IMG/VR virus record: IMGVR_UViG_3300014204_000016
Coordinates: 6,669 to 70,668 of that record
Reading direction: 5' to 3' (one strand)
DNA from: a virus
Taxonomy: Duplodnaviria > Caudoviricetes
DNA: 64,000 bases
Part shown: positions 6,127-21,341 of the stretch, in pieces
Numbering within the stretch: the stretch's first letter is position 1
Layout: each line of letters begins with the position of its first letter
Position numbers and translations under genes: made by a program
The notes under the pieces: generated by a model
What the model saw: the letters and a program-made list of their open reading frames with translations, nothing else
Told to the model about the DNA's origin: nothing
Databases searched by the model: none

Positions 6127-7830
6127 TTGATTATGAAATCCATAGTCGGAATAGAACTCAAGGAAATTGATAACGAATGGGCGTCTGGCGCTCCCTATAT
6201 TTATTTAACTACAAAATCGGGTAACTGTAAGCATAGAAAAAGATATGAAATTTTTAGCAGGACGGCTGCTTATAAAATATTCGATCAAATATTATTAGGC
6301 AATATACCGGGCGCTTTAATGGTAAATTTTGGGGATGTTGTATCAAACGGAAAAGAATCTGATCGCATGGTTGCATATATAGAAGAATTTATTAAGCGCC
6401 CCGGTTATAAATGGAATGGGCCGAAAGGCGGTTATGAATGAAACTCAACCGTGACTATTACGATGATTTAGGTGGTCGCATATATACATTCTCGCCGTAT
6501 AATTGGGGCCATGATAATATGTATCATAAGCCGTCCGTGGTCAGTGAGTTGATAATGATAGTAGTGCGGATAATGTGGATGGCTTTCTTGCTGATGGTAA
6601 TGAGCGCAATGATTGGGGGATGCTGAATCATGGATAGCTTGAAGTTTAACATTTTGACTGAAAAGAACAAAAGGAGTATGTATTTCAAATATCCGTTTGC
6701 CGATGCAATGACGAAATGTGTAGATGATTTTATCCGCATGGAAAACATTAACCGTGAAACAATGGCATGGAAAGCTCTGGATGAAGCCGGATGGGATGTG
6801 ATTAAGTTATCGGTCATGGGTGCTAAAGGGAAAAAGTTACGAAAAGCGCCGGGGAAGTTAATCATAATCACGAAACGCATAAAGTTTTGCGTGTCGAGGC
6901 GCGGCGTCCGAACTGGTGGGAAAAAATACTGTACGGAAAGCGGGGATGAGGATGGAAGCCGAAAGTAATTATTGTGTCGTTCAAGCCTGTGATACCTGTA
7001 AGCATTGGGACCGCACAAAAACGGAGCATATAGATATATGGCATAACGGCACTCTGATAGCGCCTGAACGCATATTCCATTACTGTCCGATAATTGAAGA
7101 CTGGACTTCTGATCTAACAACGATACTTAATTTTCCGGGCTGTAAATGGGAATTGCCGATGCCCGAATTTATCACAAAAACAAACTGAAAGGATAAATCA
7201 TGCAAATAGAGATAATCAATGTTGCCATAAATGAAAAAGATGATGGTTGCGGAAAAATGTCTCTTTGGCTCATCCAGAAATTCGGAAATATTACCTATAA
7301 GAAAGAGACGCATGTTTTGAGAGTTGCGCAAACGGGCTGTCCGTTGACATGGAAAATACAAAGAGAAATAGATGAAGGGTTTGAAGACACTTTCAACATT
7401 AATGGTCCTATCAAATTAGAACCTATGGCGGTATGGGTAGATTGCAATGAGTGGTTTAGCCGAATTGCGGAAAAGGCTTACGAGGAATATCTTAAAAAAC
7501 TGAACGGAAAGCGGGGATAACTAAATGAAAATTTCAGACCGAAAAAAACAGATGATCGGAAAGGTTAAGAATGCAAGACAATCTAAGGCCAAGCCATATC
7601 AAAGGGTCGGAACCATACTGGTATTTGATGAAGGAGAGTTTATCGAAAGAATAAAAAAGCCGATTTATCGCGAGACTATTGATTGCAAAGATTTTAATAT
7701 TGGCTTTATTGTAGATTACATTTATTACAAAAGAAAAAAGTATATTATAAAAAAGTTCGCAACCATAGATTTACAGGGACAGTTAAGCGACGAAGAAAGA
7801 ATGATACAAATTATGGGATTGGAGAAATAA
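6127..7830 (+). other. run of small hypothetical CDS (6127-6441, 6438-6626, 6630-6968, about 6916-7188, 7200-7520, 7525-7830)
   Basis: Co-oriented, abutting or overlapping ORFs with RBS-like purine runs; no family recognised. Confidence 0.6.
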
Positions 7831-11904: not shown

Positions 11905-14082
11905 TCATTCTCCTTTTCTCTTATTAAGCATTTTTTCTGCAAACTCTATCGGACTGAAATACTCTACTTCTGAATCGTCTTTAATCCGGTCTATTGCTTC
12001 ATCAATTCCCCTGTCCTTTCCTATCAATAGTTCGTTAATGTCTTCATCAATCATGCCGTCATTTATGAGATAGATTATATCACATTCTGCGGTCTGTCCC
12101 GGTCCATGAATACGTTTCCACATTTGTTCTAATTTCTTCGGGGACCACAATAAGTCAACTATGATAGCTGTAGATGCGGAAGTCATATTGACGCCTAAAT
12201 TACAAGCCTGTGTAGATACAACTAAAACTTTCGGATATTCTTCGTTCTGGAATCTCTTGCGCATTTCATTCCGGCGTTTAATCGACATCTTGCCGGTGAA
12301 TCCCTCTGCGCCGGGAATCGCTGCAATCATCTTATCAACAAACGGATTATTCACGGAAGCTATTAATACTTTCTCTCCGGCGTCCACTTTCTTTTTCACG
12401 ATCTGCTTTATGAATTCCATCTTTGCGGTACCGTTTCCGGTGTATGAATCGTAAAGGAATGGACAGGATGATATGCGGCGTAAAATATTCAGCTTCACAA
12501 GTACGGCTGACGATAATTGCTTCATAGAAGTCCCGCGCATCCAGTCCGGCATTTCGTCTAAGTCTGCAAGCTGCTCACGGTACCATATTTCAAAGTTGTC
12601 GACTGCTCGGTCATAGATTTCTTTCTCCGGCGCCGTTGGCTCTATGCTGATAAAGGATGGCTTGCCGTTCTTTATGTCCGGAACATTTATAAACTTGGCG
12701 ACATCGGGGTCTTTCTCTGTCCGGCGCGTCATAACGGTATCCATCAGCTCATAAAATAATTCTGCATTCCTGATTTTCGGGGATAGTTTATTACGGCCTG
12801 ACTTGGTTTTCGTGTAGACACAAAAGCGCTCTAAGAATAGCGCATAGCCGCCGTTGTATTGATACTGGAAACGTGGGCTTCCCTTACCTAACAACCACCA
12901 GAGTTGCCAAAAACATTCGCTAATATAATTCTCTAAGATTGTGCCTGTGAGTATGATTTTATGCTTTGCCTGTAGCGCCCTAAGAGCGCGCCCCTGCTGA
13001 CTGTTCCGGTTCTTACTCGCCTGTGATTCATCTACTACGATACAATCAAACGATTTCTTCATGCGCTTATAAAGGGCGGGTGTCCATGTGAAAGCTGAAT
13101 AATCACAAGCGTTACAATGGCGTCCGGTGAATTCTTTTATTGCTCCGCATTTGGGACAGCTTGAATTATCATATCTATTCCAACCGCATGTCTTTGTAGC
13201 GCTGTAGATGTCGGGATTCGGGGCCATGCAGATTTTGCTTGTCACTATTTCGCCGCATCGTTCACATGGTATCGGGCCTTCGTTCCGTTCCTCTCGGCGC
13301 AAGGTTTCAAATGCTATGATGTTGAATTTCTTTAGGTTGTATAAATCGCTCGGATGTCGGATTACGTTAATGTCTGATTTCGGGATATTCATAACTTCCA
13401 TTTCATCGGTCCATGTCTCTATCAGGGATGAAAAGCACACAAATAAATTAATCTTTGTCTCTTTAAGAATAACCGTTGCTATGGCTGTGCGCGTCTTCCC
13501 TAACCGCTGTTTGTATGCAAGGAAAGAATAATTCTTTAGTGCGTGTACCGCTGCATCATGGCGCTGATAGGGATAGAGTAAATCTTTGTATCCTATGGCT
13601 CGGAGTGTGCGCCTGTGCCTTTTATATTCGGCGCTAAGAGCCTTTGGGATTTCTTTCAGGGGCAATCCCTCTTTGTTGTAGAATCTCTGCCGGTGAAGGG
13701 CCGCTTTGAATAAGTCCGGTTCGATGTGCAATTTCAAGCCTGTATTTTCAAGACCGGGAATCTCGCCGTTTGTGACAAGTTCGTCAACCGTCAAATGCTG
13801 TTTCCATGTGTGGCCGTAATACGACATATTTCTTTTCCATTGAATAAACATATCATTTGCGCGCAAACAGTTTGGCTTGACTAAAAGTTTCCCGCCGGAT
13901 CGCTTCACAAGTAATAGATTTTCCTCGGCGTGTGAAAGTAAAGGCATGAAAAAATCACGGTCAAAGCGTCTCTGTTCGCGCGTGTGCGCCGATATTAAGA
14001 CGGGCGGCTGTTGGGCTGCCTCGGCTCGGTATGTGGCGTCAAAGTCAAATGATAGGTTCTCGGACATGGCGGAATTTAGCAA
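11905..14082 (-). CDS. SNF2-family helicase/translocase with zinc-ribbon insertion
   Basis: LYPYQ (Q motif), QRLGKT (I), IVVDESQ (II), ILTGTILENYISE (III), CNLGVNMT (V), QMWKRIHGPGQ (VI). The start may be ATG 14067. Confidence 0.85.
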   Translation of the reverse strand: MLNSAMSENLSFDFDATYRAEAAQQPPVLISAHTREQRRFDRDFFMPLLSHAEENLLLVKRSGGKLLVKPNCLRANDMFIQWKRNMSYYGHTWKQHLTVDELVTNGEIPGLENTGLKLHIEPDLFKAALHRQRFYNKEGLPLKEIPKALSAEYKRHRRTLRAIGYKDLLYPYQRHDAAVHALKNYSFLAYKQRLGKTRTAIATVILKETKINLFVCFSSLIETWTDEMEVMNIPKSDINVIRHPSDLYNLKKFNIIAFETLRREERNEGPIPCERCGEIVTSKICMAPNPDIYSATKTCGWNRYDNSSCPKCGAIKEFTGRHCNACDYSAFTWTPALYKRMKKSFDCIVVDESQASKNRNSQQGRALRALQAKHKIILTGTILENYISECFWQLWWLLGKGSPRFQYQYNGGYALFLERFCVYTKTKSGRNKLSPKIRNAELFYELMDTVMTRRTEKDPDVAKFINVPDIKNGKPSFISIEPTAPEKEIYDRAVDNFEIWYREQLADLDEMPDWMRGTSMKQLSSAVLVKLNILRRISSCPFLYDSYTGNGTAKMEFIKQIVKKKVDAGEKVLIASVNNPFVDKMIAAIPGAEGFTGKMSIKRRNEMRKRFQNEEYPKVLVVSTQACNLGVNMTSASTAIIVDLLWSPKKLEQMWKRIHGPGQTAECDIIYLINDGMIDEDINELLIGKDRGIDEAIDRIKDDSEVEYFSPIEFAEKMLNKRKGE

Positions 14083-17388: not shown

Positions 17389-18486
17389 TTATACTTTGGC
17401 GGCGTTCTCGGCGTCCATTTTCGCAAGTTCCGCGCGGATAGCTTCGCGCGTTTCGCTGTCTGAATTGTTCATGATTTCGATTAGGTCGGCGCGCTGCCTC
17501 GCCTGTTCGCTGACTTCCTCGTCTTCGGGGTCTGTCCAGTCGTTCAAGCGGCTGCCTTCCGGCGTCTGGTCGGGCTGTAAAGCTGTGGCGGCTGCTGTCT
17601 GTAGTTCTTCCGCTGTCGGGCCGTTTACGGGCTGCGGGGCTGTCTCCGGGCCGTTGTCGGGTCTGTAGTCTTCTCCGCTGTCGGTTCTCGGCGTCTCGGT
17701 TGTCGGTGTCGGGGCTGCCTCGGCTGTAAAGTCTATTGATAATTCTTGGGCCGTGGCTCCGGTCATTAGCTCGGCGGGGATTCCGGTTTCGGGTATTTCG
17801 TCAAATATGCGCATCTCTGCGGCTTGTATGCCGGTTGTCGTGGTAAATTTCATTAGCTCGCTTTCATCCAATTGGCGTCCGGCTTTCTTAATCTCTTTCG
17901 TTATGTCGCGCGCTTTCTTTTTCATGGCGTCCATTAGCTTTTTGAGTTCTTCGCTTTTGGCGTCTGGCAATAGTGCATCAAGTCCTTTCATTTCCTTTAG
18001 TACGTCTCTTATGGCGTCCGGGTTCGCTGCTTTTACTGCCGCCTTTAGGTCTGTCAATCCGTTGGTTATCATCTGACTTATTGCCTGTAGTGCTTGGGCG
18101 TTGTCGCTCGTGATTTGAAAAGTAATTATCTGGCTATATATCCGGCTGTAATATGCTCCGCTGTTGAATTCGTCAACCTGTTGGATTATCTCTTTCTCGG
18201 CTTCGGTTATGGCTTCGAACGTCTGCGGGATGTCCGGCGCAAATAGTCCTATATCCGATATCGCGCCTTTGGTGGCCGTCTTCAATGCGGTTTTGATTCT
18301 GGCTCGGAGTGCGCGCGCGCGGTCGTGTTCCGGCTTGTCTTGGATTTCGCGCGTTGTCTCCCATTTGACAAGCTCATTTTTTCCGTTTGTTTCTTCTTCT
18401 CTGGATGTGGTTTTATAGCTTACATTTCCCGTCAAGCTCACGTCATGCAATATCAATATGCTCGGTTTCAAAGGTATGCGTCTCAC
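17389..18486 (-). CDS. helical partner of the AAA+ ATPase, with low-complexity acidic tail
   Basis: GTG start at 18486 after GGAGAAAGGA; VSLTGNVSY...KWETTREI..EHDRA. Confidence 0.75.
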   Translation of the reverse strand: MRRIPLKPSILILHDVSLTGNVSYKTTSREEETNGKNELVKWETTREIQDKPEHDRARALRARIKTALKTATKGAISDIGLFAPDIPQTFEAITEAEKEIIQQVDEFNSGAYYSRIYSQIITFQITSDNAQALQAISQMITNGLTDLKAAVKAANPDAIRDVLKEMKGLDALLPDAKSEELKKLMDAMKKKARDITKEIKKAGRQLDESELMKFTTTTGIQAAEMRIFDEIPETGIPAELMTGATAQELSIDFTAEAAPTPTTETPRTDSGEDYRPDNGPETAPQPVNGPTAEELQTAAATALQPDQTPEGSRLNDWTDPEDEEVSEQARQRADLIEIMNNSDSETREAIRAELAKMDAENAAKV

Positions 18487-18520
18487 TGTCTTTGTTCCTT
18501 TCTCCGGCGCGTGGCTCGGA

Positions 18521-20032
18521 TTAGATTTTGAATATGTCTGCTGCGTTTGCTGTCTTTGCTTCCGGTTCTTTACTCGCATTTCGCGCGCTTGTCTTCGCCC
18601 ATTGTTTAAGGGCTTCCATTTTCACGGCGTCAATTTTCGTGATAGGTGTAATTCCTCTGATTGCCTCTGTAACGTCTTCGGTTGTTGGTTCGCGCTTGCC
18701 GTCATTGTATGCCGTTGTTAAGGCTTCCTGATAGGCTCTTTCAATCTCTGCGCCTGTATAACCGTCTGATACTTCGGCAATCCGCGCGGCGTCTGTGTTC
18801 GCTGTGCGTGGGTATTTCTTCATCATAACTTTTGCTATTGCTTCGCGTTCTGTCCGGTGCGGTGTTCCTACATAAAACAAAGCGTCAAATCTTCCGGTTC
18901 TCTTTAGCTCCGGTGGTAACTTTGATATGTCGTTTGCCGTTGCCAAAATAAATAACTTTCCGGCGCGTTCCTGTGTCCATTGTAAAAAATTCCCGAATAT
19001 GCGCGCGGCTGTTCCGCCGTCTCCTTCGCTGCCTGTTCCGCTTAGTGCCTTTTCAATTTCATCTATCCAAACAACCGCCGGTGATACTGCGTCAAGTATT
19101 TGTAAAGCGTTTCTCATGTTCTGCTCTGATTCGCCTACATATTTCCCGTATATGGCCGCAATATCGAATTGAATTAATGGGATTCTAAAGGCTGCTGCTG
19201 CTGCTTTTGCCGTCAAGGATTTTCCGCCGCCTGGAATACCTACTAATAATATTCCTTTGGGTGCGGGGATTCCCCAATTTTGGGCGTCTGCTGTCATTGC
19301 CGCGCGCGCTTTCAACAAATATTCTTTCAGGAATTCTAAACCGCCGATTGCCTCTAAACCGCGCGGGTCTGGATCGGTCCACGTTAAAGCCGCTGACTTA
19401 ACATAATTGCGCTTTTCCTTTGCAATAAACTCCGGCGTGATTGCTCCAGTGTTAACCAAAGATTTTAGAATAGCATTCCGCGCGGTGTCGCTGTCTAAAC
19501 CTGTCAAGCTGTCCAGTATTGCGCTTTGGGTTTCTTCGTCCGGTGTCTTTTCGGGATTCGCCGTGATTGCAAGTGATAAAAGGGCGGCTTGTTCGTCTCT
19601 GGTGGGTAGTTCAAGCGGTATTTCTAATATGCCGTTTATTGTCTGCGGTGGTGGTGTGGTGTCCAAAAAAACAAATAGCTTTTGGGTTTTACTGTCCCGT
19701 TTCCGTCCGTCTGTCAATTCGTCTTTTATAAGGCGTCTCAATCCGGCTTCCTGCAAGTGCTGTGTAATATCTTTGATAATGTATAGTGCGCGCTCCGGTT
19801 TGTTCCGCTGCTGCGCTGAAAACATTTCTTGGGGGTCGTATTTCGTGGCGTCTGCGCGCTGTGCCGTGTGGTCATATAATCCTGTAGTGACCGTCCATGT
19901 AAAGGGTAACATTTGCAAGTTGCCGGCTGCTTGTATTAATAGTGCCTCGGCGCGCGCTTCCTCTCTGGTCGTTGTCCATATTGCGCCGCATTTGCTCCGC
20001 TGCATGGCTTTGATTTGGTCTATATAATTCAT
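18521..20032 (-). CDS. AAA+ ATPase (Ycf46-like architecture)
   Basis: Walker A GIPGGGKS, Walker B VVWIDEIEK, sensor ATAN, Arg finger RTGRFD, degenerate N-terminal AAA-like half. Confidence 0.9.
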   Translation of the reverse strand: MNYIDQIKAMQRSKCGAIWTTTREEARAEALLIQAAGNLQMLPFTWTVTTGLYDHTAQRADATKYDPQEMFSAQQRNKPERALYIIKDITQHLQEAGLRRLIKDELTDGRKRDSKTQKLFVFLDTTPPPQTINGILEIPLELPTRDEQAALLSLAITANPEKTPDEETQSAILDSLTGLDSDTARNAILKSLVNTGAITPEFIAKEKRNYVKSAALTWTDPDPRGLEAIGGLEFLKEYLLKARAAMTADAQNWGIPAPKGILLVGIPGGGKSLTAKAAAAAFRIPLIQFDIAAIYGKYVGESEQNMRNALQILDAVSPAVVWIDEIEKALSGTGSEGDGGTAARIFGNFLQWTQERAGKLFILATANDISKLPPELKRTGRFDALFYVGTPHRTEREAIAKVMMKKYPRTANTDAARIAEVSDGYTGAEIERAYQEALTTAYNDGKREPTTEDVTEAIRGITPITKIDAVKMEALKQWAKTSARNASKEPEAKTANAADIFKI

Positions 20033-20090
20033 TGGTTGGTTTCCTTTCGTTCTCTATGCGGTTTATATGCCGCTGTTTTGTCGTTCTCTT

Positions 20091-20375
20091 TTAGTGCTGT
20101 ATGCCGTGGGCGTGGGCGTGTTCGTGCGTTCTGATAGCGTCTGTCGTGTTTACTCCGGCGCGTCTTAGGGCTGCGGCTGCGTCCGGTTGTTTTGCAAGTC
20201 CGGCGATAATGCAAGCGTCTCCCATCGGGCCGCGCTCGGCTGCCGATAGTCCTAAAATTTCAAGTCTGCCGGTTCGCGCGTTCCGTTTTACGGTGATTTC
20301 TCCTTTCAATATTTTTCGTTTCGCTGCCGCCAAAATTGCCGCCTTTCTTAGCTGTTCTAAATATTCACAGGCCAT
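20091..20375 (-). CDS. small protein with His-rich C-terminus
   Basis: MACE..., GDAC, ends HEHAHAHGIQH; directly upstream of the AAA gene. Confidence 0.7.
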   Translation of the reverse strand: MACEYLEQLRKAAILAAAKRKILKGEITVKRNARTGRLEILGLSAAERGPMGDACIIAGLAKQPDAAAALRRAGVNTTDAIRTHEHAHAHGIQH

Positions 20376-20480
20376 ATTTTTTAGTTCCTCTCTCCGGTTT
20401 ATTTTTCCCGTGTCGGGCGTCCGGCGGTGGCCGCGCGGTCTGTCTGGATCGCCGCGCGGCTGCTGTCGGGCGTCCGGCGT

Positions 20481-21341
20481 TTATGCGTGGTCTATTGCCT
20501 CTCTTAGTTCCTCGGCGTATGCAATATAATTTTTTATGCGCTCAATTATTCCGCTTTCATCATCATTAAAGGTAATTCCGGCTTTGGCTTCTGCTGCTTC
20601 AATTACGTTGTGGGCTTCGTTTATAATGTTCATGCGTTTGATATTATATTCGCTGTCTTCGGCTGCTCTCTCTCTTACTTGTGCAAGTAAATTATGCAAT
20701 TCTCCATAATTGCGCGCGGCTGTGTTAAGGTCTTCGGCTCTCTGCGTTGCTATTGCTGCAATTTCCGTCAAGCTGCTTTGAAGTTCTGTGGCTTCCTGTC
20801 GGGCTGCGTCTCTCTCATTCTGCGCCGTTTCGATTGCCGTTGCTGCCGTCTCCATATTGTGCCGGATTTCGTTCTGTAGTTCTCGGATTTCCTGTGCTGC
20901 GGCTTCTGTCTCTATGCGTCTCTCTCTCCAGTCTTCTAATTCCTCGGCGTCTTCGTCTCGCTTGTCGATTTCGTTTTCCTGTTTGCTGATTGTCTTAATT
21001 AAGGCGTCAATAACTTTTCCGGCTGCGTCTTTTTCCTCGGTCAAGGTTTTGATTTCTTCGGCCATTGTAGCCAAATGATTTTTGGCCGCTGTCAAGTCTG
21101 TTTCTGCGCCGTCTCTCTCTGCTCTGATTTTGTCTATCGTGTCCGTGTAGTCTGATATAATCTGCCGCGCGCTTTCCAGTTCTCCGGCTGCGGTCTGTTC
21201 TCTTGCCTCGGCTTCATTCGCGCGTTTCGCTTGTGCGTCAATCTGGTTTCGGAGTCCGGTGGTTGATATTTCAAGCTGTATTTTTATGCTCTTTTCTAAT
21301 TCCTCGGTAAAGCTGTTGATTAGTTCTTTAGGTATTCTCAT
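20481..21341 (-). CDS. long coiled-coil protein
   Basis: Ala/Glu/Arg-rich heptads; GGAG RBS. Confidence 0.75.
   Translation of the reverse strand: MRIPKELINSFTEELEKSIKIQLEISTTGLRNQIDAQAKRANEAEAREQTAAGELESARQIISDYTDTIDKIRAERDGAETDLTAAKNHLATMAEEIKTLTEEKDAAGKVIDALIKTISKQENEIDKRDEDAEELEDWRERRIETEAAAQEIRELQNEIRHNMETAATAIETAQNERDAARQEATELQSSLTEIAAIATQRAEDLNTAARNYGELHNLLAQVRERAAEDSEYNIKRMNIINEAHNVIEAAEAKAGITFNDDESGIIERIKNYIAYAEELREAIDHA

Follow-up and report, generated by a model that had tools for sequence, protein, structure and literature searches.

Classical AAA+ unfoldases that work with dedicated cofactors are central in cells, and phage-encoded examples are hardly known. The closest described counterpart of the system reported here is a set of three proteins of the Cluster O mycobacteriophage Corndog, gp96, gp95 and gp93, which are encoded in one leftward block, belong to PHROGs 8638, 11021 and 11784, respectively, and have no assigned function. 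By mass spectrometry, gp96 of Corndog was seen in infected cells only, and a Catdawg lysate contained gp95 and gp93 (PMC4351075), so that Cluster O phages do make all three proteins. The same three families are encoded by three consecutive open reading frames (ORFs) at 17389-20375, on the minus strand, of the DNA analysed here, a 64,000-nucleotide (nt) stretch (the window) that covers positions 6,669 to 70,668 of IMG/VR record IMGVR_UViG_3300014204_000016, a complete 70,668-bp record of a Caudoviricetes virus with direct terminal repeats. These genes, which encode a AAA+ ATPase, a helper protein and a small Cys/His protein, travel together across very distant phages, and do so in the window despite a rearrangement. 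PHROGs catalogues all three families as ‘unknown function’, and our literature search found no paper that describes them as one set or gives them a role; here, they are joined as one module with new cofactor families.

Read along the minus strand, the trio opens with the small gene (20091..20375), the 94-aa product of which begins MACE, contains GDAC and terminates in HEHAHAHGIQH. The ATPase gene (18521..20032; 503 aa) follows after 58 nt, and the helper gene after a further 34 nt. Taken from its first ATG, the helper ORF (17389..18579) would encode 396 aa and overlap the ATPase gene by 59 nt. The true start is almost certainly the GTG at 18486, because a ribosome-binding site, GGAGAAAGGA (18496..18505, minus strand), lies 9 nt before it, the public gene call (P0001) has the same 365-aa length, and the homologues begin aligning at the residue 1 that this GTG provides. 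The helper gene so defined (17389..18486) encodes a 365-aa protein of isoelectric point (pI) 4.7 that belongs to PHROG 11021. An earlier note on this DNA, made from the letters alone, had proposed a three-gene AAA+ module at this place; minus-strand ORFs of 94, 503 and 365 aa are indeed present there, and the 366 aa given for the helper was correct to one residue. None of the three ORFs is a product of chance, since all have homologues elsewhere, and we found no terminator-like site on the minus strand inside the trio. A DNA similarity search of the locus against phage records gave no match. At the protein level, the ATPase is 34% identical to that of Corndog and the helper 26-27%, with an extra acidic tail of about 120 aa relative to gp95; the small protein is recognizable only by profile. 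The order also differs, as Corndog has the ATPase, the helper, an extra 86-aa gene and then the small protein, and the window has the small gene first.

The evidence that the three genes form a unit comes from two scans with different starting points. An IMG/VR scan seeded with the ATPase returned 37 loci, and a helper homologue lies directly after the ATPase in 17 of them (L005-L019, L026 and L030), as it does in Corndog; the L013 contig ends inside the helper gene. In every helper locus whose contig continues (17 loci, Corndog included), a small protein of about 113 aa comes after the helper. As an independent check, 185,579 species genomes were scanned with the motif of the small protein alone. 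This yielded six contigs. In five of them the genes run ATPase, helper, small protein, and the sixth encodes only the small protein; the flanks of these metagenome-assembled genome (MAG) contigs encode Ku, a ligase, a ParB-like nuclease, a RecE-like exonuclease and dCTP deaminase. The earlier note had stated that similar trios recur in uncultured phages and would have given the idea up had the flanking genes not been conserved beside ATPase homologues. Homologues of both flanking genes do adjoin the ATPase, in Corndog, 17 IMG/VR loci and five MAG contigs, although the small gene stands in a different place in the window and its kinship took a deep profile to recognize.

The ATPase, helper, small protein order holds in all loci other than the window. 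No other ORF in the window matches the gp93 family, so the small gene has been relocated, from a place after the helper to one before the ATPase. We also compared 16 other genes of the window’s leftward arm with the flanks of the related loci and found no homologues (0/16); because these genes do not recur there, the trio behaves as a unit. In a quick tree of the ATPases, with Shimodaira-Hasegawa-like approximate likelihood-ratio test (SH-aLRT) supports, the window protein lies on a long branch as sister (93) to a clade of 18 helper-bearing loci (98). A separate clade (100) comprises four loci that encode a Pfam DUF3150 protein after the ATPase. In Aeromonas phage HJ05 and Rhodobacter phage RcKickapoo, the genes that come after the ATPase are unrelated to the partners in the window, and so is Corndog gp97, which lies upstream of gp96. 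A full-length family ATPase of 31% identity is also present in the 14-kb Streptococcus satellite phage Javan368 (record 12050-13627), among unrelated neighbours.

By its motifs, the 503-aa protein is an intact classical-clade AAA+ ATPase and should be active. It consists of an N-terminal domain of about 230 aa, one AAA module (Pfam PF00004, E 5.1e-25, 88.9 bits against a gathering cut-off of 21.2) and a lid (AAA_lid_3). PHROG 8638 matches over the full length (E 4e-117; residues 5-494 on profile positions 23-546 of 568), and the nearest solved relatives are the D2 domains of VAT, Cdc48 and p97 (E 1.9e-51). All on the minus strand, we read a Walker A motif, GIPGGGKS (19217..19240), a Walker B motif, WIDEIEK (19049..19069), and a second region of homology with arginine fingers, R-T-G-R-F-D (18884..18901), the two arginines of which are present together with the sensor-1 Asn. 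Residues 297-300, K-Y-V-G (19133..19144, minus strand), correspond to pore loop 1 and have the aromatic-hydrophobic-Gly motif of substrate-threading AAA+ motors; K[FY]VG is found in nearly all ATPases of the helper-bearing clade, and SLVG in the DUF3150 clade. The N-terminal 235 residues have a fold found in many phage AAA ATPases, which matches a cyanobacteria-dominated AAA cluster of 509-aa proteins with a template-modelling (TM) score of 0.84. The label ‘Ycf46-like’ given in the earlier note thus holds for the architecture, that is, about 500 aa with an N-domain of about 230 aa before one AAA module. More specific identities were rejected: matches to CDC48, PAN, FtsH and IteA scored far under the family cut-offs and covered the common AAA domain alone. 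For the anti-phage ATPase IetA/IteA, the score was 71.7 bits against a cut-off of 510, within the AAA domain only; for Cdc48/p97, it was 108.7 bits against 802.65, and the protein has a single AAA module in place of D1 and D2. One related ATPase ORF (L019:4959-6218) ends early, at 419 aa, where a frameshift or assembly error is possible.

The helper is tied to its family by several searches: a PHROG 11021 match (E 3.1e-7), BLASTP against the 16 genes adjoining ATPase homologues (down to 1.5e-21) and profile values for the homologues directly after the ATPase (down to 1e-117). The family comprises 52 clusters in a large protein collection, all annotated ‘hypothetical’ and none with a Pfam domain, and its alignment has 13 invariant columns within a conserved core of about 230 aa. 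As far as the alignment tells, these invariant residues do not point to an enzyme, a catalytic signature being absent. Neither the helper nor the small protein was matched in Pfam, NCBIfam or PADLOC searches. The AlphaFold model of the helper (predicted local distance difference test, pLDDT, 72.6) has a three-stranded sheet with helices (residues 1-125), a four-helix bundle (126-229), an acidic, Pro-rich disordered linker (230-319, pI 4.05) and a helical hairpin (320-364). The description of this protein as helical therefore fits the bundle and the terminal hairpin and misses the N-terminal sheet/helix domain and an acidic disordered stretch of about 90 aa. In the PDB, the top fold match was a generic four-helix bundle (Z 9.7, residues 126-234), the N-domain remaining unmatched. 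A word-based search found one relative, P0002 (43% identity), for which metagenome scans returned no genomic context, and an ESM Atlas search gave no usable match. We dropped an ESCRT-III/Vps4 reading, as the N-domain contains a sheet and no such fold was matched. DUF3150 (Pfam PF11348) was matched by 0 of 15 helper-family members at E up to 10; an hhalign comparison of the helper with DUF3150 was collinear over about 190 columns at E 0.2, and was not significant even with a 63-sequence profile. In one related locus (L007:6630-7501), the helper is divided into two overlapping ORFs, again possibly through a frameshift or assembly error.

The small protein (94 aa, basic, pI 9.9) has exactly two Cys and five His residues, the latter all in its tail. 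BLAST against the family of Corndog gp93, PHROG 11784, whose members have about 113 aa, found nothing, and a word-based search returned the protein itself alone. Profiles reached further. An 18-sequence family profile ranked the small protein first of the 347 window ORFs (E 0.0037; next 0.34), and a whole-library search gave 174 gp93-family clusters, 122 of which went into a deeper profile that matched residues 10-90 at E 7.3e-9 (30.1 bits; next window ORF 0.029). An hhalign comparison with the gp93 family gave E 3.2e-4, and none of 1975 shuffles of the small protein (0/1975) reached the real score. On these matches, we class the 94-aa protein as a divergent member of PHROG 11784.

Aligned gp93-family proteins share an invariant Met1, Cys3, Asp61, Cys63 and Arg66 and an H-S-H-D-G-G near the end, and the window protein retains Cys3, Asp53, Cys55 and His84/86/88/90 as the equivalents of the family’s Cys3, D-x-C and H-x-H. 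On the minus strand, these residues lie in the N-terminal M-A-C (20367..20375), where Cys3 is a candidate metal ligand and an M-x-C start is found in 92 of the 122 representatives; in the G-D-A-C motif with Asp53 and Cys55 (20211..20222), which aligns with the invariant D61-x-C63; and in the His-rich tail HEHAHAHGIQH (20094..20126), which aligns with H-S-H-D-G-G, the Asp-box part having been lost. A site made of Cys3, Cys55 and the His tail would suit a metal-binding cofactor or regulator. The C-terminal motif of the family gives a weak Pfam BNR/Asp-box match in 10 of 13 members, and we dropped a ubiquitin-like C-terminus, suggested by its D-G-G, in favour of the Asp-box reading. Two relatives are unusual. 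P0127, a 92-aa metagenome protein, has the first ~55 residues of a helper (TLRPGLLVSLKTSIRGNVSY...) fused with the last ~35 of a gp93-type protein (AEALAGR...HSHDGG), as though a deletion had merged the two neighbouring genes. A Gemmataceae MAG contig (L043:5950-6327) encodes a gp93-type protein without the M-x-C start; it is the sole stand-alone copy seen, its 6 kb of upstream sequence encoding neither an ATPase nor a helper.

A short C-terminal peptide provides a closer link between the ATPase and the helper than their synteny. Within the helper-bearing clade, it is present in the last 8 residues of 19 of 20 ATPases, with the pattern [RK]-x-[LIVMF]-[DE]-[LIVMF], typically R-x-L-D-L or R-x-L-D-I. 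The same peptide, mostly R-A-L-D-L, stands in the otherwise unconserved tails of 46 of 48 helpers, often with a second, degenerate copy at the very end. Across 18 loci, the tag ends 25 of 577 same-strand ORFs, 23 of which are ATPases or helpers, and none of 566 opposite-strand ORFs. At the position of the tag, the window ATPase ends D-I-F-K-I (18524..18538, minus strand), which has the same charged/hydrophobic pattern with the charges swapped and may be the same tag. The window helper has R-I-F-D-E-I (residues 226-231; 17794..17811, minus strand), where the family has F-L-D-L-D, and L-S-I-D-F (residues 249-253; 17728..17742, minus strand), where it has the G-R-A-L-D-L tail tag; its long extra tail then follows. 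Each locus of the DUF3150 clade has exactly three proteins that end R-[AS]-x-x-L-[DN], namely the ATPase, the DUF3150 protein and a small SWIM zinc-finger protein. A motor with a helper of about 300 aa and a small, putatively metal-binding protein thus recurs as a design. The heptapeptide-like tail is seen in L020, L025, L027 and L029 (e.g. L025:5001-8233), and three of these four loci encode a small CxxC zinc-ribbon protein upstream; a scan for further DUF3150 phage loci found close copies only.

Our data are consistent with a model, to which we give a probability of about one half, in which the trio is one conserved phage module that remodels proteins at the expense of ATP, aided by two dedicated accessory proteins. 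The ATPase would most likely be a hexamer whose K-Y-V-G pore loops grip a polypeptide and pull it through the central channel. The folded N-terminal half of the helper probably binds the target or the motor, and the acidic-hydrophobic peptides in its tail may act as docking labels by which it stays attached to the motor, or to a receptor that the two share, in the way that SspB is anchored on ClpX through its tail. The third subunit, the 94-aa protein, would be a metal-binding cofactor or regulator. The client is probably a host protein or protein-DNA complex dismantled early in infection, a proposal made because the module lies 3-6 kb into a leftward, presumably early, arm that begins near 23.3 kb and because relatives have DNA-metabolism neighbours. 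The role proposed in the earlier note, an early host-takeover or anti-defence machine with the small protein as adaptor or substrate, is likewise a hypothesis.

Several observations weigh against this model. The early timing is read from gene position. No ClpP or other protease partner was found in the phage genome. The tag is degenerate in the window, where the ATPase ends D-I-F-K-I and the helper end carries no tag, so the docking idea rests on the relatives. The small protein does not have the family’s Arg66 or Asp-box (S-x-D-G-G-x-T-W), showing C-I-I-A-G and H-A-H-A-H-G-I-Q-H at these places; its suggested metal binding rests on residue conservation, and the C-terminus of its model is of low confidence. 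PDB fold searches found only generic helix bundles for the helper (Z below 10) and a best match of Z 4.4 for the small protein. Lastly, the small gene is displaced relative to the other loci; with this and the lost residues, the role of its product in the window may differ.

The joint occurrence of the three genes could reflect common descent, the genes being adjacent with no functional link. A single broad lineage of phages may account for many of the related contigs, and several share further upstream genes. However, the window has none of the 16 other tested genes in common with these loci, yet it has all three of the trio, reordered; the carriers are Corndog, with its actinomycetotal host, and contigs binned with five other phyla; and the tail tag links the ATPase and the helper directly. 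We, therefore, regard a mere inherited neighbourhood as very improbable. If the genes do work together, the helper or the small protein could itself be the client, the motor unfolding or remodelling a phage-made protein to activate it, or loading or stripping its metal; CbbQ/NorQ-type ATPases, which mature metalloenzymes, and ClpX, which activates ALAS, are examples of such action. The helper’s long disordered acidic tail with its terminal peptides would suit pore-loop engagement, the conserved Cys/His set of the small protein fits a metal site that perhaps needs assisted assembly, and an ATPase that bears the same tail is compatible with self-regulation. This would nevertheless mean a motor kept just for its operon partners across very distant phages, with no evident pay-off, and Pfam-type searches found an enzyme domain in neither partner; we consider such a client unlikely.

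Two further roles were weighed. In DNA transactions, the tail peptide would be a hub-binding motif, such as numerous replication proteins have for a sliding clamp or similar ring; it would tether the motor and helper to replication or recombination complexes and let the motor strip proteins from them. Acidic-hydrophobic C-terminal peptides resemble clamp-binding tails. The neighbours in relatives (SNF2 helicase, RtcB, ParB-like nuclease, Ku, ligase, RecE-like exonuclease and dCTP deaminase) and the SNF2 helicase 3.3 kb downstream in the window agree with this role, as does the clamp subunit encoded by Cluster O phages (PMC4351075). A beta-clamp gene was not found in the genome of the window phage, though, the tag begins with Arg where bacterial clamp motifs usually have Gln, and the neighbourhood may merely mirror the general layout of phage early regions, which leaves this role improbable. 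Alternatively, as the analogy of Vcrx089-Vcrx090 would suggest, the module might inactivate an immune complex of the host, such as a restriction complex, shortly after the DNA has entered. On IncC plasmids, this AAA+ ATPase with an uncharacterized partner protects incoming DNA from type I restriction (PMC7498323, PMC11602122), the one experimental parallel; the trio is encoded in the early arm, and the place of the helper is taken by a DUF3150 protein in the sister clade of the ATPase. Against the analogy, Vcrx089 is a MoxR-type AAA_5/CbbQ_C protein of another AAA clade, the window helper does not match DUF3150, and defence and anti-defence models match the generic AAA domain alone, so that we hold a direct counter-defence role to be quite unlikely. 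The remodeller model can also be extended to a self-addressed unfoldase, in which the tail peptide would be an address label that assembles the machine and hands over clients, a host immune or nucleoid complex would be dismantled early, and the helper- and DUF3150-type trios would be two versions of one widespread and so far undescribed counter-defence motor class; this extension is speculative, and we give it little credence.

Around the trio, several further features were seen. The leaders of the small gene (20376-20480) and the helper gene (18487-18520) both carry CCGGAGA[GA]AGGAAC before the start codon, and the GC-rich repeat GCCGGACGCCCGACA is present in two copies upstream of the small gene. 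Just upstream of the trio, 20481-21341 (minus strand) encodes a 286-aa acidic coiled-coil protein with weak coiled-coil matches to SMC, Rad50 and JetC; it has no homologue in the related loci and is, therefore, placed outside the module. An SNF2-type helicase gene lies 2.5-4 kb upstream of the ATPase in L012, L014, L015, L019 and L030 (e.g. L030:644-2344), and RtcB is encoded downstream of the ATPase in two related contigs. The SNF2 helicase of the window (11905-14082) was not linked by phmmer to those of the relatives.

Overall, our analysis turns three PHROG families of ‘unknown function’ into one defined three-protein module, in which the motor motifs are intact, a metal site is probable and, among relatives, motor and helper have a tail peptide in common. 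As Cluster O mycobacteriophages grow on Mycolicibacterium smegmatis, a cultivable model for the module is at hand. Should the client be a host defence or nucleoid protein, the module would represent a new kind of phage takeover tool.

Compared with known systems, the ATPase agrees in size and architecture with the Ycf46-type ATPases of cyanobacteria, plastids and phages, and its N-domain fold matches the cyanobacteria-dominated AAA cluster. In its sister phage clade, DUF3150 and a small zinc-finger protein accompany the ATPase; by contrast, DUF1257, DUF2997 and DUF3150 have no match anywhere in the complete 70,668-bp genome (DUF1257 and DUF2997 at E up to 10). The IncC/SXT hde genes vcrx089-vcrx090 likewise combine a AAA+ ATPase with an unannotated partner, are expressed on entry of the mobile element and have a demonstrated anti-restriction phenotype. 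Their ATPase is, however, of the MoxR type, with AAA_5 and CbbQ_C (PMC7498323), whereas Pfam shows only PF00004 and AAA_lid_3 in that of the window, and we found no sequence relation between Vcrx089-Vcrx090 and the window proteins. With ClpX-SspB, the module would share a folded adaptor that has a long, flexible linker and docks on the motor by a short peptide at its end; it differs in its AAA clade, in a phage that has no ClpP and in a motor that itself bears the peptide. Cdc48, p97 and VAT, with Ufd1-Npl4, differ from the window proteins in that the latter have one AAA module, an N-domain unrelated by sequence and cofactors of no detectable similarity, and no ubiquitin-like tag genes were seen in the window’s early arm. 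What the module has in common with them is a classical-clade motor, to which their D2 domains are the nearest solved relatives, and two dedicated non-enzymatic cofactors, one of them metal-binding there and putatively so in the window.

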